Positions 3,460 to 53,233 of a DNA stretch of 64,000 nt are shown piece by piece (position 1 is the stretch's first letter; the number at the start of each line of letters is the position of its first letter). The DNA is from an uncultured Gemmatimonadales bacterium (GTDB lineage: Bacteria > Gemmatimonadota > Gemmatimonadetes > Gemmatimonadales > Gemmatimonadaceae): positions 2,208,001 through 2,272,000 of the forward strand of contig OY969695.1 in the NCBI GenBank assembly GCA_963701965.1, given 5' to 3'. The notes beneath the pieces are model-generated. The model had not been told where the DNA came from and did not search any database. It worked only from the letters and a program-made list of their open reading frames with translations. Made by a program: the position numbers and the translations under genes.

Positions 3460-4014
3460 ATGCGCCGCTCAGTCCTTTCGGGTCTCGAACTGCTGATAGC
3501 GATGGGCGCCACCTGCGCGCCGCTGTCAGCCCAGACCGATAACCCCACCGCGAATGGTGGGAACAATGCTGATTCATCCACCCAGCAAGCCCCATCGCTC
3601 GTCGGCACATGGATCCTTACGGGAGCCGACAAGCAGTTCCCCGACGGCATGCTGCTCGCCGACTATGGCCCGAGCCCACACGGCCAAGTGATCTTCACGG
3701 CCGACGGGTACTACTCCGTGCAGATCTACCGCGCGGCACGAACGAAGTTCGCATCAGGCGACAAATCCAAGGGCACGCCCGAGGAATACCGGGACGCGAC
3801 GCTCGGCATGAGTGATCACTTCGGCCGGTATAGCGTCGATCCCATCCATCACACGATCACCTTTCACATCGATCGATCATCGTATCCGAATATCAATGAC
3901 ACGTCGCCGGTCCGTCCGTACGAGTTGAAGGGTGACGTGCTGTCCTGGAGAGTCGAGGCAAGACCGGATGGCTCGGTGCCGATTACGACGATGCGCCGCG
4001 CATCGACTCATTGA
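3460..4014 (+). CDS. secreted lipocalin-like domain protein
   Basis: Signal peptide; LVGTWIL, YGPSPHGQVIFTADGYYSVQI, HFGRYSVD pattern. Confidence 0.8.
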   Translation: MRRSVLSGLELLIAMGATCAPLSAQTDNPTANGGNNADSSTQQAPSLVGTWILTGADKQFPDGMLLADYGPSPHGQVIFTADGYYSVQIYRAARTKFASGDKSKGTPEEYRDATLGMSDHFGRYSVDPIHHTITFHIDRSSYPNINDTSPVRPYELKGDVLSWRVEARPDGSVPITTMRRASTH

Positions 4015-4030
4015 CCGTTCGCCACAGGAG

Positions 4031-4654
4031 CTACGCCCTTTTCGCGGCGTGACGCGCGGAGCGCTCGACCAGCGTGGCCTTGACTGCCTGCCACTCGCTA
4101 TCGAGGATCGCAAAGTAGACCATATCGCGCCGCCGTCCGGAGTCGGCGATCAGATGCTGCCGAAAGATCCCTTCCTGGACCGCGCCAAGCCGCGTGATGG
4201 CCGCGCGCGACTGCGCATTGTTGGTCTCGGTCTTGAACACCACCCGGATGGCGCCCAACGTCTCGAAGGCGTGCGTGAGCAGCAGCAGCTTGGCCTCACC
4301 ATTCGCCCCCGTCCGCTGCCACGCCGGTGCGAGCCACGTATATCCGATCTCCAGTCGGCGGTGCTCCGGCGCGATCTCCATGTATCGCGTACTGCCGACG
4401 ACGTGACCGCTCGCCTGATCGACGATGACAAAGGGCTCCGACACGCCGCGCCGGCGCTGCTCGAGGGCCGTCGTCACATAGCGCCGCATGTCATCAACGC
4501 TCGCGATCGGCGCCGGCTGCCACCGCCAGAGCTCAGGCTCCAGCCCAACCCGCGCCAGCGCTTCCACATGTTCGAGCGTCAACGGCTCGAGCCGCACGAC
4601 CGATCCGGTGAGCGTGACCGGCTCAACGCGCACAGACACGCCCAGCGGAATCAA
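4031..4654 (-). CDS. GNAT N-acetyltransferase (RimJ/RimL-like)
   Basis: VRLEPL, GSTRY, LEIGYTWL..WQRTGAN.EAKLLLL.HAFE, N..SRAAI.RLGA.QEG..R. Confidence 0.9.
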   Translation of the reverse strand: MIPLGVSVRVEPVTLTGSVVRLEPLTLEHVEALARVGLEPELWRWQPAPIASVDDMRRYVTTALEQRRRGVSEPFVIVDQASGHVVGSTRYMEIAPEHRRLEIGYTWLAPAWQRTGANGEAKLLLLTHAFETLGAIRVVFKTETNNAQSRAAITRLGAVQEGIFRQHLIADSGRRRDMVYFAILDSEWQAVKATLVERSARHAAKRA

Positions 4655-4678
4655 AGAGGCGAACGATCACGCCCCATT

Positions 4679-5586
4679 CTAGCGTCCAACGGGCCGCGTG
4701 GCCACCAGCCGGTCACGGGACGTATGGAGGGTGGCGGGCGCGGGCTTTAGCGCACGGTCGTAGGCCGGCGTCCCCGCCGGATGCGGCCAGAACGCCACGC
4801 CCCATGGCGCTGGGTTGTCGGTCGTCCCGATATACGTCGCAGTTTGGGCGCCGCCGGCGGCGAGTTGCGCCGCGGTCAGGTGGTAGAGACCGCCGCGGAA
4901 TTCGGCGACCCACACCCCGCCGATGGCATCGAACGCGATGTTGTTCAAGCTGAACACGGTGTGCCCGGTCACGTTGATGCTGACCGTGGTCGTGGGCGTG
5001 ACTCCGGTGGCGCTCGCGGCGAGCTGGCTCGCCGCGAATTCGAACAGCGCGTTGCCCTGCTGCGCGACCCACAAATTGCCCGACGCATCGAACGCCGAGT
5101 AGCCAATGTTCGGCGCGTTGGTGAGTTGGAGCGTGATCGACGGATTGACGCTGACGGTTCCTGAGTGTGCGCGCTGCGATGGGTGAACGCGTAGATGCCC
5201 ACAGGGCCGAACAGATCCGTCACCCACAGATTGCCGCTGGCGTCGAACGCGAGGCCCCACGGACTGACCATGACCGGATTGCTCACCGCCGGCCCGATGA
5301 TCAGGTTCGGCGCGGCCGAGCTGGCGCCGTGCATCGCGGCGAGCTGATGGGCGGTGTACTCGCTGATGTCGAGGTGTGTCGCATCGTTGAAAAACAGGTC
5401 GCCATTGGTGTCGAACGTCACGCCCATGATCCGCGGGTTGTTGGGCACCGTGATCGTCAGCGAGGGCGTGAGGTTTCCGCCGGTGAGCAGCGACTCCGCG
5501 TATTCAACGATCGTGCTATTGCCGGCGACCCAGAGGTTGCCGCTCCGATCGACGGCGAGGGCGGTCTGCAGGGGTACGTTCGCCAG
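4679..5586 (-). pseudogene. NHL/SMP-30-like beta-propeller repeat protein, 5'-truncated and frameshifted
   Basis: Repeats LAVDRSGNLWV, LAFDASGNLWV, AFDASGNLWV, IAFDAIGGVWV split over two frames; shift at a C-run near 5181; frame opens right after a TAG with no ATG or signal peptide. Confidence 0.7.
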
Positions 5587-6077: not shown

Positions 6078-6410
6078 TTACGCGGCGATGGCGGATACCT
6101 TGACCAACGCGGCGGCAACTGCGTGATCAGCAGCCTCTGGTCCGAATGCGACGCCCTCTATAGTGACCAGCTCAATGTCATTGAGACCAATGAACGGAAG
6201 CGCCGCGCGCAGGTACGCTTCTTGGAAGTTGAATTGCTGCATCGGGCCTTCGCTGCAGACGCCGCCCCGGGCCAGGACCAGGTAGATCTTCTTGCCTTTG
6301 ATCAGTCCCTCTGGTCCATTGCTCGAGTAATTGAACGTCAAACGCGGACGCACGATATAGTCGATGTACGCTTTCAGGTTTGACGGAATGCCGAAGTTGA
6401 TCATCCCGTA
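6078..6410 (-). pseudogene. azoR: FMN-dependent NADH-azoreductase, C-terminal half only
   Basis: MINFGIPSNLKAYIDYIVR..LTF.Y...GPEGL..GKK.YLV.ARGG and YLR..L.FIGL.D motifs; N-terminal half absent. Confidence 0.8.
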
Positions 6411-6510
6411 CCGGGCCCAACCGTTGCACCCACGATGAACAAAGCCCGCCGGATCGCGGCGGGCACGTGGACCTTGATCTCCTTCGAGCCGGATGGGGGG
6501 GTGGCAGCCG

Positions 6511-7857
6511 TCAGAGCCACCCACCCTGGAAGCCTGCGCGGCGCAGACCTGCGATGATGTAAGGCGAGCGGCGGGTGATATTCCAAATCAACTCCGAGCG
6601 GTAGTTCTCGATCATGAGCGCGACCGGCCCCTGGTCGATCCCGAAGTGATAGGGGGTCACCCACCAGCCAGTGGAGCTGTCCGGCACTCGGTACGTCTGA
6701 TTGTATGATGCTTTGAAGCCGTAGCGCTTCGTCATGCCGAGGTCGAGCCCCGCCATGGCGCGGACGGTCGGGATGACGATCTCCGGAGCGAATGGCAGCG
6801 AGGCGACGGCGACCCAGGGCGCTAGCGTCCCGTCGTCAGGCCCGAAGGGTGCCCCGCGCGCATTGTAATCGTAGAACTGTCGCTGGACGCCGTTTACCAA
6901 CCGGCTCTCCCAGGCGGGGCCATCGGTCGCCGTAATCCCCCAGGCGAATTCGCCGTAGCCGGCGAACTCGAACGGATTGCGGCGCGCGTACTCTTGGTGA
7001 ACGAATGTCGCCTGCCGGCTGTTCTCGAAGTAGTTGCTGTGATGCTCCCGCATGAACGCATCGGCGAGGTCGCGAAAGTCGATCCAAATGTGCGAGAGCT
7101 GGTGCGTGAACAGCGGCCCGGAGTAGAGCAGCTCGCGGCCGTAGATCTCTCTCCATTGGTACGTCGAGCAATAGGCGGCGTAGCTCTCTGGCGGCAGGGG
7201 GCAGGTCGGTGAGCCGAGGGCGAGCAGATAGACGAGCAGCGCCTCATCGTAGCCCATCCAATAGTGGGGAATGAAGCCGCTCTCCGGGCGCCAGCCGTGG
7301 CAGATGGCCGGACCACCGTTCGTGGCCCATTCCCAGTCGGCGCGGCTATACAGCTCGTGGACCAGGCGACGAACCGCGGTTTCCTCCTCGGTATCGGCGT
7401 CGAAGTAGGCGGCACACGTGAGCATTCCGGCAAACAGGAATGCGGAATCGATGGTCGATAGCTCGCACTCCCAGACGCGCTCGCCCGTCTTCATGTCCAG
7501 GAAGTGATAGTAGAAGCCCCGATATCCGGTCGCATTCGACTGCGGTCCCTGCGGGCTGTCGCGGAAGAACCGAAGCCGCTTCAGCGCTAGCTCCGGAGCG
7601 AACTCGCGGGCGACGACGCCGCGTTCGACGAGCACGGGGAGATTGGCCAGCGCGAGACCCGTGGCGGCAATGCTTGCCGGTGCCCCGGGCGCGGTCTTGT
7701 CGCGGACCAGCCCATTGGTCGGGTTGCTCTCGTGGACGTAGTACTGCAGCGTCGTGAGCTGTAGCATGGCCAGCTCTGCATCACTCACTGAGCCACCGGC
7801 CACGTGCCCGGTCGTTCCGCGTTCGGTCGCGTCCATGATGGCCCCTACCCGTGGCAT
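6511..7857 (-). CDS. glucoamylase-family (GH144-like, putative beta-1,2-glucanase) hydrolase
   Basis: NGLVRD, SIAATGLAL, GYRGFYYHFLDM.TG.R, ELSTIDSA, GYDEAL, LF.HQ.SH.W, GIDQGP..MIENYR. Confidence 0.85.
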   Translation of the reverse strand: MPRVGAIMDATERGTTGHVAGGSVSDAELAMLQLTTLQYYVHESNPTNGLVRDKTAPGAPASIAATGLALANLPVLVERGVVAREFAPELALKRLRFFRDSPQGPQSNATGYRGFYYHFLDMKTGERVWECELSTIDSAFLFAGMLTCAAYFDADTEEETAVRRLVHELYSRADWEWATNGGPAICHGWRPESGFIPHYWMGYDEALLVYLLALGSPTCPLPPESYAAYCSTYQWREIYGRELLYSGPLFTHQLSHIWIDFRDLADAFMREHHSNYFENSRQATFVHQEYARRNPFEFAGYGEFAWGITATDGPAWESRLVNGVQRQFYDYNARGAPFGPDDGTLAPWVAVASLPFAPEIVIPTVRAMAGLDLGMTKRYGFKASYNQTYRVPDSSTGWWVTPYHFGIDQGPVALMIENYRSELIWNITRRSPYIIAGLRRAGFQGGWL

Positions 7858-41735: not shown

Positions 41736-41758
41736 GCGGTAAGCTAAGAGATCGCACG

Positions 41759-42233
41759 GGAGCGGCGGCTTGGCCGCCGCGACAGGCAACCGACAGTCGT
41801 TGTCTCGCTGTGGCGAAGGCCACAGGAGCGCGGCTTGGCCGCCGCGACAGGCAACCGACAGTCGTTGTTCTAGCTGTGGCGAAGGCCACAGGAGCGCGGC
41901 TTGGCCGCCGCGACAGGCAACCGACAGTCGTTGTCTAGCTGTGGCGAAGGCCACAGGAGCGCGGCTTGGCCGCCGCGACAGGCAACCGACAGTCGTTGTT
42001 CTAGCTGTGGCGAAGGCCACAGGAGCGCGGCTTGGCCGCCGCGACAGGCAACCGACAGTCGTTGTTCTAGCTGTGGCGAAGGCCACAGGAGCGCGGCTTG
42101 GCCGCCGCGACAGGCAACCGACAGTCGTTGTTCTAGCTGTGGCGAAGGCCACAGGAGCGCGGCTTGGCCGCCGCGACAGGCAACCGACAGTCGTTGTTCT
42201 AGCTGCGGCGAAGGCCACAGCTAGAACAACGAC
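41759..42233. repeat. 7 tandem copies of a 65-66 bp palindrome-rich unit plus terminal inverted arm
   Basis: Units start at 41759, 41825, 41891, 41956, 42022, 42088, 42154; consensus ggagcgcggcttggccgccgcgacaggcaaccgacagtcgttgttctagctgtggcgaaggccaca. Confidence 0.97.
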
Positions 42234-43050: not shown

Positions 43051-44493
43051 CTACCGGTACGTCTCGAAGAACCCCGTGCCGTCGCCGGCCAGCGCGGCGC
43101 CACCGGCGCGGCCACTCAAATGCGCGCGCCCCTTCATCTGGACGAAATAGGGATGAGCCGGACCAGCGGTCGGCGTCCGCGTCGCGACCGCGTCCTCGAT
43201 CTCGAGGTCGAGCCGCAGGGTATCGGCGCCGCGCACATCGGTCAGTGTGGCGTGCGCGGGTACGCGCAGCGAACGGCCGTCGACCGCGATGACTTTGCTG
43301 TCGTCGTACACGATCTGTCGCGGCCGGAACACCGTCCGGAAGCCAAGCGAATCGACGAGATACAGGAACATGGGCGCGGACGCGTCCAGCGAGTCGGGCG
43401 CGTGGACGCGGCCGTACAGGAGCCCGAACGCGCCGGCCCGCGTGGCACCCCACTCCCAGCTGACGCCGCGCCACACGCCCCAGTTGTGATCGTGATACGA
43501 CTGCGTGTGCTCGTAGTGCTGGCACCGGTCGTCGATGCAGAGGGATCCGGACGCGTCGGCGATCAACCCCGGCACGGTATAGCCGGACCGAAAATTCCCA
43601 CTCGTAAGATCGACACCAGGGAAATAGGCGCCCGGCGCGGGCGTGACGACCAGATCGACGCTGAGATGTCCGCGCCCACCCTCTTCGCGCGCCGTGGCGT
43701 GCACAGCGTAGCGTCCGTCGGGACGGACGCGCACCGATGACGACCCGAGGCTGACATCGGCCCGCGTCGCCGAGAAATGGACGTCCGCCGGCGGGACCAG
43801 AGCCACGAACCGCCGCGCCGGCCGGCCGGTCTCGTGGGTCGTGACCAGCACGCGGCCGCCGGCGCCGGCGACGATGAACGTGATGAACGCCCACCGGTTG
43901 CGGTCCGGCGACACGACGTTGAAGTAGTGCCACTCGGCCCACGTCTCGCGCCCGGCCCCCGAGACCGGCATCGCGTGAAAGTGGTCGATGTCATTCGCCA
44001 ACTCGAGCGCCGTGGGCGCCACCCACCGCCGGTCGGCGCTGTCGTCGTTCCACGCCCCGGCCAGGACGACCGGCGCGGCGCGCACCGCCCGTTGGGCCGA
44101 GGGGATGTCCCCCGACGCGCGCACCGTGCGCTCGACCCCGTCCCGCGTCGTGAGATAGAGGAGCGCGTCGTCATCCTGCGGCGCGACCGCGCGGACGTCG
44201 CGCGCCAGCCGCGGCGCGCCGAGCAGTTGGCGATACAGGAACCGCGCGTTGGTGATAGAGAAAAAGAGACCGCCCAGTCCCCCGGTCTTCATGACTTCGA
44301 TGTCGATCCCTTCCGGCAGCACCGTCACATCGCCGCCGCCGACCAACCGCTCGTCTTGCGCTTGATCGACCATCGCCTCGCCGATGGACAACAGCACGAT
44401 CATGACGGATACGCCCAGCCCGAACCCGAGGAAGAGGAGCAGGGACCGCCACGGTTTGTAGAGAAAGTTGCGCAATGCCAACAACGGCATCAT
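43051..44493 (-). CDS. fusion of MacB/LolE permease N-terminal half with AttH/CrtC-like domain
   Basis: LALRN...PWRSLL...G..LGV (TM1) plus periplasmic start; then EWHYFN, SYHDHNWG, WEWG, FFE motifs; no C-terminal FtsX helices. Confidence 0.75.
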   Translation of the reverse strand: MMPLLALRNFLYKPWRSLLLFLGFGLGVSVMIVLLSIGEAMVDQAQDERLVGGGDVTVLPEGIDIEVMKTGGLGGLFFSITNARFLYRQLLGAPRLARDVRAVAPQDDDALLYLTTRDGVERTVRASGDIPSAQRAVRAAPVVLAGAWNDDSADRRWVAPTALELANDIDHFHAMPVSGAGRETWAEWHYFNVVSPDRNRWAFITFIVAGAGGRVLVTTHETGRPARRFVALVPPADVHFSATRADVSLGSSSVRVRPDGRYAVHATAREEGGRGHLSVDLVVTPAPGAYFPGVDLTSGNFRSGYTVPGLIADASGSLCIDDRCQHYEHTQSYHDHNWGVWRGVSWEWGATRAGAFGLLYGRVHAPDSLDASAPMFLYLVDSLGFRTVFRPRQIVYDDSKVIAVDGRSLRVPAHATLTDVRGADTLRLDLEIEDAVATRTPTAGPAHPYFVQMKGRAHLSGRAGGAALAGDGTGFFETYR

Positions 44494-45224
44494 GCGCGGC
44501 GTCTCGACTCGTCGGCGACGATGCGGCCGTCGCGCATATGGACGACGCGCGCCGCGGCCGCCGCCAGATCCTCGTCGTGCGTCACGACGACAATCGTCGT
44601 GCCATCGGCGTTGAGCCGGCCGAAGAGCCCGATGATCTCGGCGCCCGTCTGGGCATCGAGCTCGCCGGTGGGCTCGTCGGCGAGCAACAGCGCCGGACGA
44701 TTGGCCAGCGCGCGCGCAATGGCCACGCGTTGTTGCTCGCCGCCCGACAGTTGCGACGGCCGGTGCCGCTCCCGGTCGGCCAGGCCGACGTACTCCAGCA
44801 ACGCGTGCGCCCGGGCCGCGCGTTCGTCGGGCCGCATGCGCGCTTCGGCCATCGGCAGCTCGACATTCTCGCGCGCCGTGAGCGTGGGCATGAGGTAGAA
44901 CCGCTGGAACACGAATCCAATGTGCCGGAGCCGGAACAATGTCGTCTGCGCGTCGGTCATGGCGCCGACGTCGAGCGCGCGAATCGTGACCCGGCCGCTC
45001 GTCGGCCGATCGATGGCGCCAAGGAGATTGAGCAGCGTCGACTTGCCGCAGCCGGACGGGCCGACGATGGCCACGTACTCGCCGAGACCGACGTCGAGAT
45101 CCACGCCCCGCACGGCCCGCACGATCTCGCCGCCGACCGGATACTCGCGCACGAGAGAGCGCGCGCTCAAGAGCACCGGGTGCGCGCGGGGACGCGGGCG
45201 GGGGGTGGCGATAGCGATGGTCAC
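44490..45224 (-). CDS. ABC transporter ATP-binding protein (LolD/MacB-like)
   Basis: GPSGCGKST, IGFVFQ, LSGGEQQRVAIARAL, LLADEPTG.LD, VVTHD; GTGA overlap with the permease. Confidence 0.95.
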   Translation of the reverse strand: MTIAIATPRPRPRAHPVLLSARSLVREYPVGGEIVRAVRGVDLDVGLGEYVAIVGPSGCGKSTLLNLLGAIDRPTSGRVTIRALDVGAMTDAQTTLFRLRHIGFVFQRFYLMPTLTARENVELPMAEARMRPDERAARAHALLEYVGLADRERHRPSQLSGGEQQRVAIARALANRPALLLADEPTGELDAQTGAEIIGLFGRLNADGTTIVVVTHDEDLAAAAARVVHMRDGRIVADESRRRA

Positions 45225-46411
45225 GCGATCGCCTCGCGGTGAAGGGTGTCGGCGATGGGCAGTGACGCCGCGCGCCAGGCGGGATAGATGCCGGCCAGGA
45301 GCCCCGACGTCAGCAGCAGCCCCAGCGCCGTCAGCGCCGCCGGGGCACGAAAGACAAAGAACTTGAAGGCCGCCGGGAGACCGGGAAACGCCGACAGGAT
45401 GTCGTTGAGCAGGCCCGCGGTCACGAGACCCAGCGCGAGCCCCAGGATGCTGCCGGCGATCGACATCGCCAGACCCTCGAGCACGATCTGCTTGACGACG
45501 TTCCACCGGCTGACGCCGATCGCCCGCAACACCGCGATCTCGCCAATCCGCTCGTTCACGGACACCGTAACCAGTGTCGTCACCAGCAGAAATCCGACAC
45601 CGAGGCTGATCGAACCGAGGATGAACGCCAGCTGGCGGAAGTAGCCCATGCGCTCGTCAACTTGTCGGAGCGCCGAATTCGTGGAGATCGCCGTGACGCG
45701 CGGGACCGCCGCTTCGATAGCGCGGCGCGCGGGTTCCGGGTCGGCGCCATTGCGCACACGAGCCATGACGAGAGAGACCCGGTCGGCGGTCGCCGGGCCA
45801 CCCATGGCTTGCAACACGGGCAACGGTACGGCCGCGACCGGTTGGTTCGCCGACGTGTAGTGAAATCGTCCGATTCCGGCGATGACCAGGCGTCGCCGTC
45901 CGCTGTAGGTGCGCAGTTGCGTGTCGAAGCCGGCGGCCACGTCCAGCGTGTCACCGATCTTGGCGCCCGTCGCGTCGAGGAATGGCGCGTTGACCACGAT
46001 CCGATCCGGCGCTGCCGAGCGGGCGCCGGAGACGCGCGTGTAGTCGCCTTGCACGGACTCATCGAGCCCGATGGCGAAACTCGTCGCTTCGCGGCGCCCG
46101 CCCCCGATGACGTGGATCTGGAGGCCGAGCACCGGGCTGACCGCGACCACGTCGGGGATCGATCGCAGCGTCTGGAGCAAGCGCGCCGCGTCGCCGATCG
46201 TGGCCTCGCTGTCGAATGGCAGCGTGCCTTTGGGCGCGATCCGGAGCTGGAAGCCCTGCACCAGCAGCAGCCGGCGGAAAGAGTCGTGCATGCCGCCGGA
46301 CAGCATCACCATGTCGAGCAGGAGCGCGCCGGAGACGGCGACGCCCGCCACCGCCAGCAGGGACCGCGCGCGGCGGCGGACCAGCGACTTGACGGCGAGG
46401 CGGACGCGCAT
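45221..46411 (-). CDS. ABC transporter permease (LolC/E, MacB-PCD + FtsX)
   Basis: TM1, periplasmic domain, SVNER..EIAVLRAIG, G.YPAWRAA.L. Confidence 0.92.
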   Translation of the reverse strand: MRVRLAVKSLVRRRARSLLAVAGVAVSGALLLDMVMLSGGMHDSFRRLLLVQGFQLRIAPKGTLPFDSEATIGDAARLLQTLRSIPDVVAVSPVLGLQIHVIGGGRREATSFAIGLDESVQGDYTRVSGARSAAPDRIVVNAPFLDATGAKIGDTLDVAAGFDTQLRTYSGRRRLVIAGIGRFHYTSANQPVAAVPLPVLQAMGGPATADRVSLVMARVRNGADPEPARRAIEAAVPRVTAISTNSALRQVDERMGYFRQLAFILGSISLGVGFLLVTTLVTVSVNERIGEIAVLRAIGVSRWNVVKQIVLEGLAMSIAGSILGLALGLVTAGLLNDILSAFPGLPAAFKFFVFRAPAALTALGLLLTSGLLAGIYPAWRAASLPIADTLHREAIA

Positions 46412-46414
46412 CGG

Positions 46415-47257
46415 CTAGCGCCCGAGGAGGGCCAAGGGGGGCCGACTGACGAGGCGCGCGGCGGCGGCCAGGCCTACACCGATACCCAGCAGGATCGACA
46501 CGACGACCGCAAAGCTCACGATCGCCGGCGTGACGAGGGAGAACATCAATGGCGTCTGATAAACGCCCTGGTAGTGCCAGTTGATCAGCAGGGATCCCAG
46601 CCAGCCCACAACGGCGCCCAGCGCGCTGCCGACGAGCGAGATCAGCGCGGCCTCGATCACGATCGTCAACACGACCGATCCGCGGGAGATACCCATGAGA
46701 CGCAGCGCCGCAATGTCCCGGCGTCGTTCGTCGACCTTGAGCAGCAGGATGCAGAGCAGGAATATGGCGCTGGCCACGATCGTGATGATGCCGATCGCCG
46801 CCTGAAAGCGGCTGAGCACGCGGAAGGTCTGCGACGTGCGCACGGCGATTGTCGCCGATGGATAGGCGCGGAATCCGAACGCGACGGCGTTGATCGAGGC
46901 CAGCGCGCGGGCTTGGGCCGCCGAACCGTTGGTGGCGATGGCGAATCGGTCGACGCGGTCCCCGGTGCCCAGCAGCCGTTGGAGGTCGCCCAGGTGCAGG
47001 CGGACGCGCGACACGTTGCGCGCGACTTCGGACGGATCGGCACTCCGCCGCGTGATCGCGGCGACGACGAACGTGTCGCCGCCCACGCCGCCCGCCTGGG
47101 GCGCGAGCACCACGCGGTCGCCGACGGCCAGATGCGCCTCGGCGGCCAACCGCTCGTCGATCGCGATCGTCGGCGCCGCTTGAGCAGGGGCGCCTTGCGC
47201 GCCGGCGCTGGTGGCCAGCGCGGCGACGGCAACGCAGATCTTCCAGACGTGCGTCAC
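46415..47257 (-). CDS. FtsX-like permease C-terminal half with its own signal peptide
   Basis: Signal peptide (AGA-Q), IAIDERLA...L.VGD.V.L, KVDERRRDIAALRLMG, three TM helices; lacks canonical TM1. Confidence 0.8.
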   Translation of the reverse strand: MTHVWKICVAVAALATSAGAQGAPAQAAPTIAIDERLAAEAHLAVGDRVVLAPQAGGVGGDTFVVAAITRRSADPSEVARNVSRVRLHLGDLQRLLGTGDRVDRFAIATNGSAAQARALASINAVAFGFRAYPSATIAVRTSQTFRVLSRFQAAIGIITIVASAIFLLCILLLKVDERRRDIAALRLMGISRGSVVLTIVIEAALISLVGSALGAVVGWLGSLLINWHYQGVYQTPLMFSLVTPAIVSFAVVVSILLGIGVGLAAAARLVSRPPLALLGR

Positions 47258-47267
47258 GAGATGGGCG

Positions 47268-47753
47268 CTACCGGAGCGAGCGCTCGCCGCGCGCCATCGC
47301 GTCGGCGGCGGCCGGCGCCACGGGATCGCGCCAACCGGCGCGCACCAGCAGCACGGGCACCATGGACCAATGCCTGACTTCGTTGGCCACGCTGCCGCGA
47401 AAGAGATCGGACAGGAATTTGTGGCCGTGCGTCGACATCGCGATCAACGAGCACTGCTCCCGTTCCGCCGCATCGGCGATCTCCTCGGCCGGATCCCCGG
47501 TCGCGAGGATGGCGTCGGCCTCGAATCCTTCTGTCTCCAGCTCCGCAGCCACGTGTTCAATGTACGCCCGGTCGCTCTTCATCTCCTCGGACTCGCGGAG
47601 ATGCAAATGCCGGATGTTCCTTGCCGCCCATCCATCGGCCACATGGATCAGCACGAGGGACGCCCCGCACATGCGCGCCAGGAGCCGCACGTGGGCGAGA
47701 ATGCTGGCATCGGCCGTGGAGTGCTCCAACGGCACGAGGATACGATCGTACAC
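47268..47753 (-). CDS. universal stress protein
   Basis: YDRILVPL, L.LIHV, GDPAEEI, LIAMSTHG, GSVA..V...PVLLV. Confidence 0.92.
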   Translation of the reverse strand: MYDRILVPLEHSTADASILAHVRLLARMCGASLVLIHVADGWAARNIRHLHLRESEEMKSDRAYIEHVAAELETEGFEADAILATGDPAEEIADAAEREQCSLIAMSTHGHKFLSDLFRGSVANEVRHWSMVPVLLVRAGWRDPVAPAAADAMARGERSLR

Positions 47754-47772
47754 GTCGACCTCCCCGGTTCAG

Positions 47773-48378
47773 CTAGCGGGCTCGCCCACCAGCGTCGCCA
47801 ACTGTCGCAAGAATGCGCTCCGTCATGCCCCAAACAACGTATTCACCGTGCCGAAAACTGGGCACGCGCCGTTCGACCCCCCGGGCCATGACGGTCGATT
47901 CGACCCCGGCATCGGGCGCGGTAAACGTCGCGAGGGGCACCCAAAAGGCGGCCGACACCTCGTCACTGAGAACTAAAGGCGACGAGAGCGGCCCCTGTAA
48001 CGCGACGACGTAGGGACGGACGCGCATGGCGTATCCCGACCGCGCCTGCAGGTCGTCGAGCGCGCCCAGCACGTGACCATCGCGCCGGAGGTCGATCCCG
48101 GTCTCCTCGAAGGTCTCACGCAACGCGGTATCCTCGAGCGACGCGTCGCCGGGCTCGACCCGTCCTCCCGGGAGGGCAACGTGTCCACTCCACGGATCAC
48201 GATCGTGCTCGGCGCGCTTGATCATCAGGATTTCGATCCGGTCGTCGACCTCCCGGAGCACCAACGCCACCGCGGCCTGCGCACCGTCCGTCCCATGGCG
48301 CGCCGCGCGGGGCGCCAGTCGGTCGACCAGTCGCTCGGAGATCGCGGTGAGCATGTCCCGGTGGGTCCTCACCGTCAC
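47773..48378 (-). CDS. NUDIX CoA pyrophosphatase
   Basis: AAV.L, PWSG.VALPGG..E..D..L..TALRETFEETG, EV...FWVP, VWGMT. Confidence 0.9.
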   Translation of the reverse strand: MTVRTHRDMLTAISERLVDRLAPRAARHGTDGAQAAVALVLREVDDRIEILMIKRAEHDRDPWSGHVALPGGRVEPGDASLEDTALRETFEETGIDLRRDGHVLGALDDLQARSGYAMRVRPYVVALQGPLSSPLVLSDEVSAAFWVPLATFTAPDAGVESTVMARGVERRVPSFRHGEYVVWGMTERILATVGDAGGRAR

Positions 48379-48737
48379 CCCTCGACCTCGCCGCCGGCGT
48401 CGACCCAGGCGCGGAATCCACCACGCATGGACGAAACCTTACTGTAGCCCATTTCGCGCATGGTGTCCGCGGCCAGCGCCGACCGGTTGCCGCTCGCGCA
48501 ATACACCACGACGGTGGCCTCGCGCGGCACGCGTTGCTCGATCGTGGTCTCTAATGTTCCGCGCGGAATGAAAACGGCGCCCGGCAGACGCCCGAGGTTC
48601 CACTCATTAGGCTCCCGCACATCCAGAAACACGACGCCGTCGCTGCCTTTAGTGCTCGCGACGGCCTCGGCTACTGAGACTTCAGGGATGCGGGTCTTGG
48701 CCGCGTTGATGAGATCGCTTCCGGTCCGAGGCGTCAT
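48375..48737 (-). CDS. rhodanese-like domain protein
   Basis: LDVREP.EW..G.LPGA..IP, VVYCASGNRS, M.GGF.AW. Confidence 0.92.
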   Translation of the reverse strand: MTPRTGSDLINAAKTRIPEVSVAEAVASTKGSDGVVFLDVREPNEWNLGRLPGAVFIPRGTLETTIEQRVPREATVVVYCASGNRSALAADTMREMGYSKVSSMRGGFRAWVDAGGEVEG

Positions 48738-48748
48738 GCCCCGAAATC

Positions 48749-48790
48749 TAAACGGGGTGCGGGGACACAGTCCCCACACCCCGCTTTTTT
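48749..48790. terminator. GC-rich hairpin with A/T tails, possibly bidirectional terminator
   Basis: aaaCGGGGTGcGGGGAC-aca-GTCCCCaCACCCCGctttttt. Confidence 0.7.
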
Positions 48791-50023: not shown

Positions 50024-53000
50024 GTGCACTCTTTGCGCTCCGCGACGATGCTCCTCTCGTCCGCTCACGATTCCGTTACACTCGCTCCGATTCTCGCGGC
50101 GCTCCGATTCGCCGCTGCCAGACAGATAGACGCGGACGACCGCGCCCGCTTAGGTCTCGGCGCCCTGGCGAGTGAGGCCTGGGTCGCCCGCGGCGACGGT
50201 GCCCTCCGCGCCCTGATCATCACGCCCCGCGCCGGGATGCCGGCGCGGCATCTGGTTGGCCTCGTCGCCGAGCGCCTGGCGCGCCGCGCGCCACATCTGC
50301 TATGGCTTCTGATCGCGGTGGATAGCGGCGAGGCCGGGGGATCGCTGGCTTTGGCCGCGTGGTCGGCGGACCGCGTGCCGCCGCGCGTCGCCGCCCTCAT
50401 CGTCGACCGCGCCCACGTCGTCGAAAGTGACGCGGATACGATCGTCGCGCTGGAAGCCGCGGCCGCGATCGGTCCAACCGATCCAGACGGCGCGCTGACG
50501 CACACGCGCTGGATCGACATTCTGGGCCGCGAAGGCCTCGGGCGCCGGTTCCACCGCGCGGTCGCGCGGGCGGTCAATGCGCTGGCGGCCGGCAGCGAGG
50601 GACGCGCCGCGGCCAGCGAGCGGCACGAGATCGCCCTCCTGTACACGTGCCGGCTCCTGTTTCTCGCGTTTCTCGAGGCCAAGGGTTGGCTCGACGGAGA
50701 CCGCGCGTTTTTGGGACGCGCATTCGATCGCTGCGTCGCTGGCGCCGGCGGGGTGCACGCGCGCGTGTTGCTGCCGCTTTTCTTCGGCACACTGAACACA
50801 CCGCCGCATCGGCGCGCCGCGCGCGCCCGCGCGTTCGGACGCATCCCTTTTCTCAACGGCGGGTTGTTCGCGCCGGCGCCGGTCGAACGCCGGCGCGGTA
50901 TCCGCTTCACCGATGCCGCGCTCGGCGTGCTCTTTGGCGACGTCCTGCCCCATTTTCGCTTCCGGCCGCACGAGGACCACACCGAGTCGGCGATCGATCC
51001 CGCGATGCTGGGCCGAACGTTCGAGTCGCTCATGGAGACGGTCGCGCGACGGACGAGCGGCACGTATTACACGCCGCGGGCGTTGGTCGACACCGCCGTC
51101 GTCGCCGCCATCGCCCAGTTGTTGACGGGAGACGGGCTCACTGCCGCCGAGGCCGAGGCGTTCGTGCGAGGCGGACCAGTCGCCCACGAGCTCAGCGACG
51201 CAATGCGCGCGCGCCTCGGCTCCGTACGCGTTCTCGATCCCGCGTGCGGCTCAGGTGCGTTTCTGGTGCACGTGCTCGAGACCCTCGCCGCGCTCGCGGC
51301 GCGACTCGGCGACACCCGTCCCCTCGGCGAGTTGCGCGCCGCGATCCTGACGCAGTCGATCTTCGGCGTCGACACGAATCCGACGGCGGTCTGGCTCTGC
51401 GAGCTCCGCTTGTGGCTTTCCGTCGTGATCGAGAGCGAAGTCACAGATCCGCTCGCCGTTTCGCCTCTGCCGAATCTCGACCGCAACGTGCGCGTCGGCA
51501 ATTCCCTCGCGGGCGGCGGCGCGTCATGCACGAACGCCCCGGGCATAGCGCTCCTGCGCCGCCGCTACGTGACGGCGACGGGCACGCGCAAGCGCGCGGT
51601 CGCAATGGCGCTCGATCGCGCCGAGCGGGCAGTGGCCATCGCCCACGTCACCCGCACCTTGCAGCGCGTGCGCGGACAGCGCGCGGATCTCCTGGCGGCC
51701 GGGCGCGGACGTGACTTGTTCGGGCATCACGTGGCGCCACACACCGAGCGGCTCACGGCGTTGCGCACCGAGTCCCGGGCCCTGCGCCGGCAGTTGACGG
51801 CACTGCGGGACGGCGCGGCACTGCCATTCGCCTACGCCGTGCAGTTCGCCGAGGCGGCGCTGGGGTTCGACGCCATCGTCGGCAACCCCCCGTGGGTGCG
51901 GCTGCACAACATCCCGGCGTCGGAACGCGAGCGATTGCGCGCCGGGTTCCGCACGTTCCGCGAGGCGGCCTGGATGCACGGCGCGCGACTGGCGCGCGCC
52001 GGACAGGGCTTCGGCTCGCAGGTCGACCTCGCGGCGCTCTTCGCCGAGCGCGCCGTGTCGCTGTGCCGCCCCGGCGGCGTCATCGCGCTTCTGGTCCCGG
52101 CCAAGCTCTTTCGCGCCCTGGCCGGCGGCGGCTTCCGCGCCCTGCTCCGGCGCGACACGCGGATCACCGCGATCGAGGACTGGTCCGACGCCGAGCCGGC
52201 GTTCGACGCGGCGGTGTACCCCGCGCTCGTCGTCGCGCGTCGCGCCGATCCGGCCGGGACGCGCAATGCGATGACCCGCGTCGCCGTGCATCAGCGCGGC
52301 GGCCGCGCGCGCCGCTGGGTCGCGCCGGTCGATCGGCTGGCACTCGACGCCACGGACGGGTGTCCGTGGGCACTCATTCCGCCCGCGGTGCGCGGGGCAT
52401 TCGACGCGGTCGTCGCCGCCGGCGTGCCAATGCACGAGACGCGGTTCGGCGCGCCATGGCTCGGCGTCAAGTCGGGGCTCAACGCGGCATTCGTGGTCAC
52501 CACGGCCGATGACGGCGAAAACGCCGGTGACCCGGCTAGCGCCAGTGGGATCACCCGGATAGTCGGGCGCGGCGAGCGCGGTGCACCACGGTGTGGCCTG
52601 ATGGAAACGGCGCTCCTCCGCCCGCTCATCCGCGGCGAGACGATCACGCCGTGGGTGGCGCGCGGCCGCGAACGGCTCGTGTGGGCGCACGACGCCGAGG
52701 TCCTGCCCGAACACGCCGCGCGCTGGCTCGCGCCTTGGCGCCATCGTTTGCGGGCCCGGAGCGATACGCGCGGCGGCCGCTGGTGGCGGCTCTTTCGCGC
52801 GGAGAGCGCCGATGCCCGCCACCCGCGCGTCGTCTGGGCCGACATCGGGCGATCGCCGCGCGCCGCGGTGCTCCCGGCCGGCTGCCCGTCGGTCGCTCTC
52901 AATAGCTGCTACCTGGCGCGCTGCCCCGACCTCGGCGATGCGCTGGCATTCGCGGCGCTCCTCAACGGACCGCTGGCCGCGGCCTGGCTCAACGCCATCG

Positions 53001-53233
53001 CCGAGCCCGCGCGCGGCGGCTGGCGCCGCTACCTGGGCTGGACCGTCGGCCTCTTGCCCATTCCCCGCGACTGGCCCCGCGCCCGTCGTCGCTTGTCCGC
53101 GCTGGGCGAGCGCGCGATCGGCGGCGAGATCGTCGGACTCGACGAGCTGTGGGACGCGGCGGTCGACGCCTATCGTCTCCCGCCGGCCGCCGTCGCGCCT
53201 CTGGCCGCGTGGGTCCTGGGCCCGAGTCGCTGA
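50024..53233 (+). CDS. large N6-adenine DNA methyltransferase (Eco57I/type IIG-like) with C-terminal specificity region
   Basis: IPFLNGGLF, LGRTFESL, GTYYTP, VLDPACGSGAFL, IFGVD, LPNLD.N..VGNSL, FDAIVGNPPWV. Confidence 0.9.
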   Translation: MHSLRSATMLLSSAHDSVTLAPILAALRFAAARQIDADDRARLGLGALASEAWVARGDGALRALIITPRAGMPARHLVGLVAERLARRAPHLLWLLIAVDSGEAGGSLALAAWSADRVPPRVAALIVDRAHVVESDADTIVALEAAAAIGPTDPDGALTHTRWIDILGREGLGRRFHRAVARAVNALAAGSEGRAAASERHEIALLYTCRLLFLAFLEAKGWLDGDRAFLGRAFDRCVAGAGGVHARVLLPLFFGTLNTPPHRRAARARAFGRIPFLNGGLFAPAPVERRRGIRFTDAALGVLFGDVLPHFRFRPHEDHTESAIDPAMLGRTFESLMETVARRTSGTYYTPRALVDTAVVAAIAQLLTGDGLTAAEAEAFVRGGPVAHELSDAMRARLGSVRVLDPACGSGAFLVHVLETLAALAARLGDTRPLGELRAAILTQSIFGVDTNPTAVWLCELRLWLSVVIESEVTDPLAVSPLPNLDRNVRVGNSLAGGGASCTNAPGIALLRRRYVTATGTRKRAVAMALDRAERAVAIAHVTRTLQRVRGQRADLLAAGRGRDLFGHHVAPHTERLTALRTESRALRRQLTALRDGAALPFAYAVQFAEAALGFDAIVGNPPWVRLHNIPASERERLRAGFRTFREAAWMHGARLARAGQGFGSQVDLAALFAERAVSLCRPGGVIALLVPAKLFRALAGGGFRALLRRDTRITAIEDWSDAEPAFDAAVYPALVVARRADPAGTRNAMTRVAVHQRGGRARRWVAPVDRLALDATDGCPWALIPPAVRGAFDAVVAAGVPMHETRFGAPWLGVKSGLNAAFVVTTADDGENAGDPASASGITRIVGRGERGAPRCGLMETALLRPLIRGETITPWVARGRERLVWAHDAEVLPEHAARWLAPWRHRLRARSDTRGGRWWRLFRAESADARHPRVVWADIGRSPRAAVLPAGCPSVALNSCYLARCPDLGDALAFAALLNGPLAAAWLNAIAEPARGGWRRYLGWTVGLLPIPRDWPRARRRLSALGERAIGGEIVGLDELWDAAVDAYRLPPAAVAPLAAWVLGPSR

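Follow-up and report, generated by a model that had tools for sequence, protein, structure and literature searches.

The locus raises the question of how a type VII ABC transporter might be built when its second permease is divided between two genes, one of which continues into a barrel domain, and of what such an assembly might do. It lies in a window of 64,000 nucleotides from an uncultured Gemmatimonadales bacterium (contig OY969695.1), and the positions below are those of this window.

Organization of the locus

Four open reading frames, all on the minus strand, encode in turn a permease C-half, a complete permease, an ATPase and a fusion protein. The first gene (46415..47257, minus strand) specifies the 280-residue C-half of the second permease, consisting of a leader, the distal periplasmic half-domain and TM2-4 (FtsX at residues 154-274, E = 1.5e-17), and the second (45221..46411, minus strand) a complete 4-TM type VII permease of 396 residues with Pfam MacB_PCD at 17-234 and FtsX at 264-385. 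These are followed by a MacB/LolD-type ABC ATPase of 244 residues (44490..45224, minus strand; ABC_tran, E = 6e-35), whose start we took to be the GTG overlapping the stop of the preceding gene, and by the 480-residue fusion (43051..44493, minus strand), in which a permease N-half is joined to a predicted AttH-fold double barrel. Only 3 nt separate the stop of the C-half from the start of the complete permease, while permease and ATPase share a GTGA overlap and ATPase and fusion an ATGA overlap; this tight coupling bears out the four-gene operon proposed in the first-pass annotation. Hydropathy predicted four TM segments in the complete permease, three in the C-half and one in the fusion.

Complementarity of the permease halves

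Using hhalign, residues 1-147 of the fusion were aligned with residues 1-130 of the complete permease, and residues 26-273 of the C-half with residues 133-385. In the frame of the complete permease the halves thus show zero overlap and a gap of two residues. The N-half comprises an N-terminal helix, TM1 (15-43) and the first half of the periplasmic domain up to W148 (44050..44493, minus strand); its match stops at LAGA (147), facing VSGA (130), and the C-half resumes with residue 26 opposite residue 133. The first-pass annotation had described a parallel of about 150 residues from TM1 to VSGAR/LAGAW, a C-half starting where that match ends and supplying TM2-4, and an IAIDERLA/IVVNAPFL register; all of these were recovered, the register being the one found by hhalign and the C-half alignment running through residue 385 with its three TM segments, and a check for an overlap or a large gap between the halves returned neither in the profile alignment.

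The C-half match to the complete permease was strong (hhalign 99.5%, E = 7e-23), and Foldseek searches with the C-half were led by LolE, the top match, and MacB. For the N-half, profiles of close homologues gave a probability of 76-84% (E about 1e-5) and an alignment of 66 sequences gave 94.8% (E = 5e-8). Pairwise BLASTP missed this similarity (best E 2.5), and Pfam MacB_PCD aligned positions 1-117 of its 207 with fusion residues 17-155 at 20.8 bits, against a cut-off of 27; it matched 35 of the 66 fusion-family members at E ≤ 0.5. Overall identity in the N-half is about 30%, with R16, G23, G27, L34-L35, Q44, GGG52-54, P131 and W148 each kept in at least 60 of 66 members, more conservation than a simple membrane anchor should require. 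The source genome holds one N-half of this type only, which leaves no other evident home for the partner of the C-half.

The Porter subdomain is described as two beta-alpha-beta motifs flanking the Sabre (PMC5985334, PMC8277102). When the fusion was modelled alone, pLDDT fell below 50 at residues 43-78, and the lone model of the C-half lacked strands at 100-111 and 126-133; in these models each half lacks order where its partner should pair, although low confidence in a lone model could also stem from real disorder. A coevolution analysis of 171 paired loci, a shallow set with an effective depth of about 90, gave a top inter-chain score of 8.5, which we judged no higher than the 6.8-8.1 of shuffled pairings. 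The mapped-contact value for the top 100 pairs was 0.20 compared with a maximum of 0.10 in 12 shuffles, but a register-shift control reached 0.27.

A predicted Sec-type leader occupies residues 1-20 of the C-half (47198..47257, minus strand), with putative cleavage at A-G-A before Gln21. A hydrophobic 8-residue core was present in 160 of 165 C-half homologues compared with 4 of 60 control windows farther upstream, so that the signal peptide claimed earlier holds as a predicted hydrophobic leader conserved across relatives, and the sequences point to a real hydrophobic N-terminal segment. The leaders vary; their hydrophobic stretch is often no longer than 8-12 residues, many of them end in A-x-A/Q, and their median 19-residue hydropathy is 1.67 versus 2.3-2.5 for true TM1. 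Nevertheless, 89 of 160 are TM-like, with a 19-residue hydropathy of at least 1.6, and would be compatible with an uncleaved anchor instead of a cleaved leader.

Predicted fold and conserved motifs of the barrel domain

The AF2 model of the fusion (mean pLDDT 84) confidently predicts that residues ~175-480 (43054..43971, minus strand), which would be periplasmic, form two orthogonal flattened beta-barrels in an AttH-like double-barrel fold. The top Foldseek match was AttH itself (NE1406, PDB 2ICH, with PF07143 and PF17186; E = 2.4e-12), a protein whose genes are described as adjoining LolD-like ABC transporters (PMC2954199). In VIA, 2ICH gave Z 24.3 (rmsd 3.5, 283 residues aligned), the next unrelated row Z 7.4, and AttH, Fsa2/CghA/Phm7, 25-PSL and kievitone hydratase together spanned Z 21.8-24.4, with identities of 9-16% among the structural matches. 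Since about 3 Z units cover proteins as different as AttH, Diels-Alderases, a steroid lyase and a hydratase, the fold points to no single chemistry for the barrel. PDB sequence searches with the fusion returned nothing significant, neither PF07143 nor PF17186 was found in any of the 66 family members at E ≤ 0.5, and faint Pfam echoes were those of tocopherol cyclase (13/66) and AsqO_C (7/66). The domain first recognized by its EWHYF...YHDHNWG...WEW pattern after the N-half is therefore AttH-like in predicted fold but belongs to none of the Pfam AttH/CrtC families, which refines its earlier AttH/CrtC-like label.

The motif that opens the first barrel, W185-A-E187-W-H-Y-F-N192 (43918..43941, minus strand), resembles the EWWY of canonical AttH, and W185, E187, W188 and Y190 are kept in 65 of 66 members. 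A candidate active site is formed by Y333-H-D335-H-N-W-G (43477..43497, minus strand), every residue of which is kept in 63-66 of 66, as are the near-invariant polar residues E187, Y333, H334, D335, H336, N337, Q452 and E477. In the alignment with canonical AttH, D335 falls on the W-M-D Asp, and the Y333-x-D335 spacing equals that of Y266 and D268 in CrtC, which are essential there and belong to the catalytic set H239, W241, Y266 and D268 (PMC4717167). The linker between N-half and barrel (residues 149-184; 43942..44049, minus strand) is itself conserved at D150, D154, W157, P160, D170, F172 and H173, and its length is nearly fixed, the W148-E187 spacing being 36-42 residues in 60 of 66 members.

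Conservation and distribution

The same four-gene order was found in 170 of 174 loci (57/57, 91/94 and 22/23 by source), which belong to Gemmatimonadota and to a distant clade under the name Vicinamibacterales, and a near-full-length fusion was present in 108 of 301 Gemmatimonadota genomes, about one third of those sampled. Databases mostly label the fusion 'hypothetical protein'. None of 253 fusion ORFs carried a C-half and none of 165 C-half ORFs an N-half, the one flagged case (L060) being an envelope extension; the loci examined thus held no unsplit orthologue, and the split proved to be conserved across relatives. Among the capped set of candidates scored, the longer relatives of the C-half included four close ones, all of which we read as frameshift chimeras with neighbouring genes, and the longer relatives of the fusion consisted of one protein whose extra C-terminal part is unrelated; the absence of an unsplit ancestor from these searches is weak evidence. 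Judged from these comparisons, the permease split is old, with a layout spanning at least two phyla.

Canonical attEFGH-type examples are also present in Gemmatimonadota. An intact fusion occurred in none of the 16 canonical-AttH genomes compared with 108 of 301 overall (naive p = 6e-4, with carriers clustered in few genera), which is only consistent with replacement. Neighbourhood clustering revealed no biosynthetic gene common to the Gemmatimonadota and distant-clade loci and no cross-phylum neighbour, and hence gave no clue to the substrate.

Transporter class

The ATPase motifs are intact, and 100-107 of 110 homologues keep them (Walker A in 103, the signature in 107, Walker B in 107 and the H-loop in 103); the best NCBIfam models are those of MacB/LolD, below their cut-offs. 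The complete permease, with long alignments to MacB, LolE and LolF, contains the 4-TM Porter/Sabre unit of type VII transporters, whereas the second such unit is complete only when two genes are combined (1 + 3 TM). Of the LolCDE/MacB-type assignment made at first pass, the type VII, MacB-like character of ATPase and permeases was upheld and the Lol pathway was not: the permeases scored 50.1 and 39.8 bits against the lolCE family, far below its cut-off of 362.45, and a 339.7-bit LolC/E gene and LolA lie elsewhere in the source genome. We rejected MacAB-TolC, since the ATPase is a separate gene and not fused to the permease; among recurring neighbours at 90 loci no periplasmic adaptor or outer-membrane duct was recognised from the clustering alone, and such partners could lie elsewhere.

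Canonical attEFGH was rejected in view of the fusion of the barrel to the permease N-half and the absence of PF07143/PF17186 from all 66 family members; the source genome has no AttH with PF07143 + PF17186. In a FastTree analysis of 73 of 101 segments, with weak deep nodes, the two permease families of the operon were sisters (support 0.38) and grouped with neither AttF nor AttG. Membership of the YbbAP-TesA system was rejected on its 10-TM YbbP and GDSL hydrolase, as opposed to the 4-TM and 1+3-TM chains and AttH-fold partner seen here.

Proposed assembly and alternative explanations

We lean slightly towards the reading that the four gene products make up a single type VII ABC machine, with a second permease rebuilt from two chains and with lipid passed to the tethered barrel. 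We consider assembly of the split permease itself to be probable, and given this assembly, lipid extraction coupled to catalysis seems more likely than not; we infer a lipid or isoprenoid function for the barrel. The fusion would insert N-in/C-out via TM1, placing its half-domain and barrel in the periplasm, and the C-half, having lost TM1, would export its half-domain by a signal peptide and then insert TM2-4. The two Porter beta-alpha-beta halves would pair and the Sabre would close around the cut. Stalk zippering driven by the ATPase dimer (mechanotransmission) would push substrate up towards the barrel, whose place corresponds roughly to the docking sites of TesA and LolA on their own transporters, and the conserved Tyr/His/Asp/Trp cluster could carry out acid-type chemistry, as in known AttH-fold enzymes; alkene hydration, dehydration and cyclisation are candidates, and the substrate is probably an isoprenoid. 

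With the same three-chain assembly, the barrel might instead perform no catalysis and serve as a carrier or sensor, much like a permanently tethered LolA: once a lipid or hydrophobic compound is extracted, it would take it up, retain it or pass it on. AttH barrels are calycin/lipocalin-like, the 2ICH structure paper reports no large cavity in AttH and favours a role in lipid binding or transport over a catalytic one (PMC2954199), a hairpin of the complete permease occupies the LolC/LolE/LolF Hook position, where LolA is recruited (PMC8277102), and the neighbourhoods lack pathway genes. However, the near-invariant polar residues look like an active site, the structural matches other than 2ICH are all titled enzymes or enzyme complexes, and shuttling is impossible for a membrane-bound carrier, so that we regard this as unlikely. 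It is less likely still that the assembled machine moves no substrate and that its ATP-driven movement switches the attached barrel on and off, with a target in the periplasm or envelope, in the manner of FtsEX-EnvC. Type VII mechanotransmission is described as serving regulation besides extraction (PMC5985334, PMC12646458), and a linker conserved in sequence and length is what mechanical coupling would produce, but the permeases are nearer to MacB/LolE/LolF, with a full Sabre, than to FtsX, and the AttH-fold substrates named in the literature found are hydrophobic.

A different possibility, which we rate as improbable though a little less so than such switching, is that the halves stay apart, the C-half being a truncated permease that keeps its leader as a TM1 substitute and the fusion an anchored AttH protein with a vestigial permease piece. 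The TM-like leaders and the divergence of the N-half, unseen by BLASTP and under the Pfam cut-off, would fit this, but the two break points complement each other exactly, conservation of the N-half extends across phyla, a Porter subdomain cut in half would probably be unstable on its own, and the leaders, being variable and short-cored with A-x-A/Q ends, fall short of true TM1 in hydropathy. A local rearrangement, a frameshift artefact or a decaying LolCDE paralogue is very improbable. A frameshift-broken lolC/E-like gene does occur elsewhere in the same assembly, and frameshift chimeras exist among database homologues; however, some 1.9 kb and two genes separate the halves, whose order is reversed, the layout recurs at nearly all loci, the ATPase motifs are intact, and better LolC/E (340 bits) and LolA genes are present in the genome.

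Comparison with known systems

The published catalogue of type VII arrangements comprises homodimers, heterodimers and fused double units (PMC5985334); it includes no permease divided within its periplasmic domain in which a signal peptide takes over the export role of TM1. Our literature search did not find a split permease with a fused AttH barrel. We tentatively propose, at somewhat less than even chances, a natural split type VII permease with a three-chain membrane core, one periplasmic domain made from two separately exported polypeptides and an AttH-fold enzyme covalently held over the extraction pocket. Such a machine, powered by ATP and acting in the periplasm, would tailor an envelope lipid in Gemmatimonadota and Acidobacteriota and offer a hard-wired alternative to attEFGH. 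If assembled, it would indicate that a Porter/Sabre domain can form in trans and that the mechanotransmission motor offers a natural mounting site for enzymes.

The barrel shares its predicted double-barrel fold (Z 22-24) with kievitone hydratase (7A0Q), Fsa2/Phm7/CghA and 25-phosphosteroid lyase (9FZN), and the spacing of its Y-x-D motif with CrtC. An AttH-like hydroxy-GDGT synthase (Hgs) is also known (bioRxiv 2025.10.20.683597). The literature found describes none of these AttH-fold enzymes, CrtC included, within a transporter chain. With LolCDE-LolA the locus has in common 4-TM permeases that here would likewise form a heterodimer, a separate ATPase, the Hook-position hairpin and LolE as the top fold match of the C-half, but LolC and LolE are single chains whereas the second permease here would comprise two.

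The attEFGH operon of Agrobacterium and Rv0986-0988 of Mycobacterium are described as uniting an ATPase, two MacB-type permease units and AttH (PMC3982062, PMC2954199), the same inventory as here, and the EW.Y and D-bearing barrel motifs align. In five of the six canonical att loci fetched, however, the permease units are fused in one chain of ~850 residues, the sixth having two pieces, and canonical AttH is encoded separately and has a leader of its own, whereas here the barrel is fused inside the cut permease. The fusion may thus serve as a Rosetta stone for the long-unexplained attEFGH/Rv0986-0988 class: its architecture is an argument for a physical action of AttH barrels on the transporter, as recently shown for TesA, and if this is true, canonical AttH proteins would also dock on their transporters. 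[quoted passage not shown] There, the GDSL hydrolase TesA is a protein apart and YbbP forms one 10-TM chain; here, three membrane chains would carry an AttH-fold domain that is joined on at the Sabre subdomain.

Two genes of one operon encode complementary halves of a permease

The four genes of the operon are coupled and all lie on the minus strand: a C-half protein of 280 amino acids (46415-47257) that matches only FtsX in Pfam, a complete permease of 396 amino acids (45221-46411) with both MacB_PCD and FtsX, an ABC ATPase of 244 amino acids (44490-45224), and a fusion protein of 480 amino acids (43051-44493) that matches the first 117 of the 207 MacB_PCD positions below the Pfam cut-off. 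By hydropathy, the complete permease has four TM segments, the C-half three and the fusion one, and the features of the ATPase and permeases identify this as a type VII ABC system.

The first-pass annotation had proposed that the fusion and the C-half carry complementary parts of a second permease, and profile alignment confirmed this. Pairwise BLASTP gave no detectable match for the N-half and found the C-half only in part. In profile alignments, fusion residues 1-147 aligned with residues 1-130 of the complete permease (94.8%, E 5e-8 once the profile held 66 diverse fusion sequences), and C-half residues 26-273 aligned with residues 133-385 (99.5%, E 7e-23); the profile behind these residue ranges and the C-half score includes the unpublished genome G157, and no claim depends on G157 alone. 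In this fold, one sheet is formed from interleaved strands of two beta-alpha-beta motifs, and each half should therefore need the other to be complete. These motifs make up the Porter subdomain (PMC5985334, PMC8277102). Most of the complete permease can be aligned to MacB, LolE and LolF, and from this alignment we infer that the cut lies within the Sabre subdomain and separates the two motifs. In single-chain models, fusion residues 43-78 have a pLDDT below 50 and the C-half lacks a strand at 100-111 and 126-133; these gaps of order would fit mutually dependent halves, which is suggestive but not proof.

A signal peptide had also been assigned to the C-half. Directly before the conserved start, an 8-residue window with a hydropathy of at least 2.0 was present in 160 of 165 C-halves, as against 4 of 60 windows taken as controls from further upstream, and 157 C-halves have a start codon near this leader. 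The leader sequences are variable, and A-x-A or Gln stands at the end of many. Their 19-residue hydropathy has a median of 1.67, lower than the 2.3-2.5 of true TM1 segments, although 89 of 160 lie at 1.6 or above; a cleaved signal peptide appears to be a better reading than an anchor, which is less likely. The hydrophobic leader is conserved, and its cleavage is predicted.

The split is conserved among relatives

The relatives belong to Gemmatimonadota. A scan of species genomes confirmed at least 519 loci, of which 80 were kept, and 114 of an even sample of 301 genomes from the phylum (a tally that includes G157) matched: 108 near full length, three marginally and three partially. Homologues down to ~30% identity were recovered when a profile was searched against 1.84 billion representatives. 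At the level of sequence clusters, one has members named Armatimonadota, and in a distant metagenome clade one of ten clusters has a member named Vicinamibacterales, which we take to belong to Acidobacteriota.

Gene order was compared in 174 loci whose sequence extends 3.1 kb or more upstream of the fusion; neither the AttH loci nor the short-flank loci L081-L110 belong to this set. In 170 of the 174, all four genes are present in one shared order and on one strand (57/57 from close genomes, 91/94 from the phylum sample and 22/23 distant loci, although some genomes may recur between these sources and related genomes do not count as independent). Three of the four exceptions are fetched stretches that end before the C-half. 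The fourth, L185 (2192-4379), is the only one of the 174 in which the C-half is in frame with the complete permease; this single ORF has lost the ends of both, probably through deletion or assembly error.

The possibility of unsplit orthologues had been raised at the outset, and the permease was split in the orthologues examined, with the C-half inside none of 253 closed fusion ORFs. Of the 165 C-half ORFs, a single one (L060) raised a flag for permease similarity upstream, and there the leader directly precedes the conserved start; 98 of the 165 have an in-frame stop no more than 60 codons upstream of the C-half. Searches for longer, unsplit forms, which scored a capped set of candidates, returned frameshift chimeras and one unrelated extension. 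The split architecture is real and conserved. In P0365, a 995-amino-acid homologue, the entire fusion is followed by a C-terminal extension with PD40 repeats at its end.

The fusion carries a predicted AttH-fold barrel

The AlphaFold2 model of fusion residues ~175-480 contains two beta-barrels (mean pLDDT 84). The top Foldseek match was AttH NE1406 (2ICH, E 2.4e-12), and VIA-align gave Z scores of 21.8-24.4 for 2ICH, Fsa2, CghA, Phm7, 25-phosphosteroid lyase and kievitone hydratase before falling to 7.4; independently, the ESM Atlas returned CrtC/Lipocalin_9, Svf1 and Diels-Alderase clusters. None of the 66 fusion members matched PF07143 or PF17186, and 13 of them matched tocopherol cyclase weakly. 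The domain annotated as AttH/CrtC-like is predicted to have the AttH fold but falls outside the canonical Pfam families.

Residues W185, E187, W188, Y190, G304, Y305, P308, Y333-G339, W341, W346, W348, Q452 and E477 are each present in 63-66 of the 66 members. An alignment of the second barrel with six canonical AttH proteins had a probability of 60% (E 9e-5) and placed D335 on the Asp of W-M-D. Two CrtC residues, Y266 and D268, are essential, and the latter has been proposed as the acid (PMC4717167); by spacing alone, Y333 and D335 are candidate equivalents. The linker from W148 to E187 measures 36-42 residues in 60 of 66 members, and this near-constant length suggests a fixed geometry.

A stand-alone relative of the barrel (L308, 851-2137, genome G055) reads EWHHFN...GYHDHNWG, lacks the permease N-half and has no Pfam match; no ABC gene was detected within the 8 kb fetched around it. 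The ESM Atlas also holds a large unnamed cluster of 351 amino acids, commonest in Actinomycetota.

Genomic surroundings

Upstream of the operon in the window lie Usp, Nudix and rhodanese genes (47268-48779). In ~43 of 90 loci (e.g. L077 and L079) the upstream genes are what we take to be a DtxR/MntR-like regulator and an NRAMP-like transporter, which in Gemmatimonadota looks like lineage synteny. Comparison of neighbourhoods found no neighbour gene common to Gemmatimonadota and distant-clade loci. Between the ATPase and the fusion, L123 carries an inserted, leader-bearing gene of the endonuclease/exonuclease/phosphatase family (3933-5531), and L032, L050, L052 and L057, from several Gemmatimonadaceae, carry an inserted ~200-amino-acid unknown protein (~6330-7000).

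Elsewhere in the window, a tandem array between SURF1-family and DUF72 genes (41755-42220) comprises 7.1 copies, with 98% matches, of a 66-bp unit whose fold consists of three small hairpins; the array was found nowhere else in the genome. A 1069-amino-acid Eco57I/N6-methylase-type protein (50024-53233) is probably a restriction-modification enzyme.

A possible extract-and-modify machine

The single TM segment and the N-in topology of MacB-type permeases imply that the barrel should be periplasmic, where it would be attached in the Sabre region. We lean towards reading the operon as a machine that extracts and modifies its substrate with a covalently mounted enzyme. This reading draws on three precedents: in YbbAP-TesA the enzyme sits atop the periplasmic domains, its active site turned towards the transporter, and the authors of that study suggest lipid extraction for hydrolysis, which they call unconfirmed (PMC12646458); AttH genes adjoin LolD-like ABC genes (PMC2954199, PMC3982062, PMC4051167); and an archaeal membrane lipid is hydrated by an AttH-like enzyme (bioRxiv 2025.10.20.683597).

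Four other explanations were weighed. The barrel might instead be a tethered carrier, the strongest of the competitors though itself rather unlikely. That the halves do not reunite at all seems improbable, and a role of the barrel as part of a regulatory switch slightly more so. An artefact is very hard to credit.

A plausible origin would be the insertion of a barrel gene, stop codon included, into a permease gene, whose orphaned C-terminal part then acquired a signal peptide.

Comparison with known systems

The open-access PubMed Central and bioRxiv texts, as far as they were accessible, described neither a split permease of the MacB type nor a fusion of a permease with AttH, and neither appears in the list of type VII arrangements in a 2018 review (PMC5985334). 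Identity with LolCDE was rejected: both permeases score far under the lolCE family threshold (50.1 and 39.8 against 362.45 bits), and the source genome has better LolC/E and LolA genes at other sites. An intact lolC/E-like gene is found in this genome at 332973-334217. Another lolC/E-like gene on contig C1 of the genome (199282-200524; L304, L305 and L310) spans two overlapping frames, probably because of an assembly indel.

Six Gemmatimonadota genomes contain canonical attEFGH-type operons (L217-L222) with an ATPase, a duplicated ~850-amino-acid permease and a separate AttH. The AttH C-terminal family occurred in 16 of the 301 genomes and the intact split system in none of these 16; canonical AttH and the intact fusion were thus never found together in the sample, an exclusion signal that is weak once genera are considered. 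One genome with canonical AttH (G239) carries a barrel fragment with stops (L309, 4790-5074), near which no ABC genes were detected, a possible remnant after replacement. The permease tree did not tie the operon permeases to AttF or AttG, 28 of its 101 segments having been dropped for short alignment. The parts list of attEFGH is similar to that of this operon, yet when its membership is tested the operon falls outside attEFGH.
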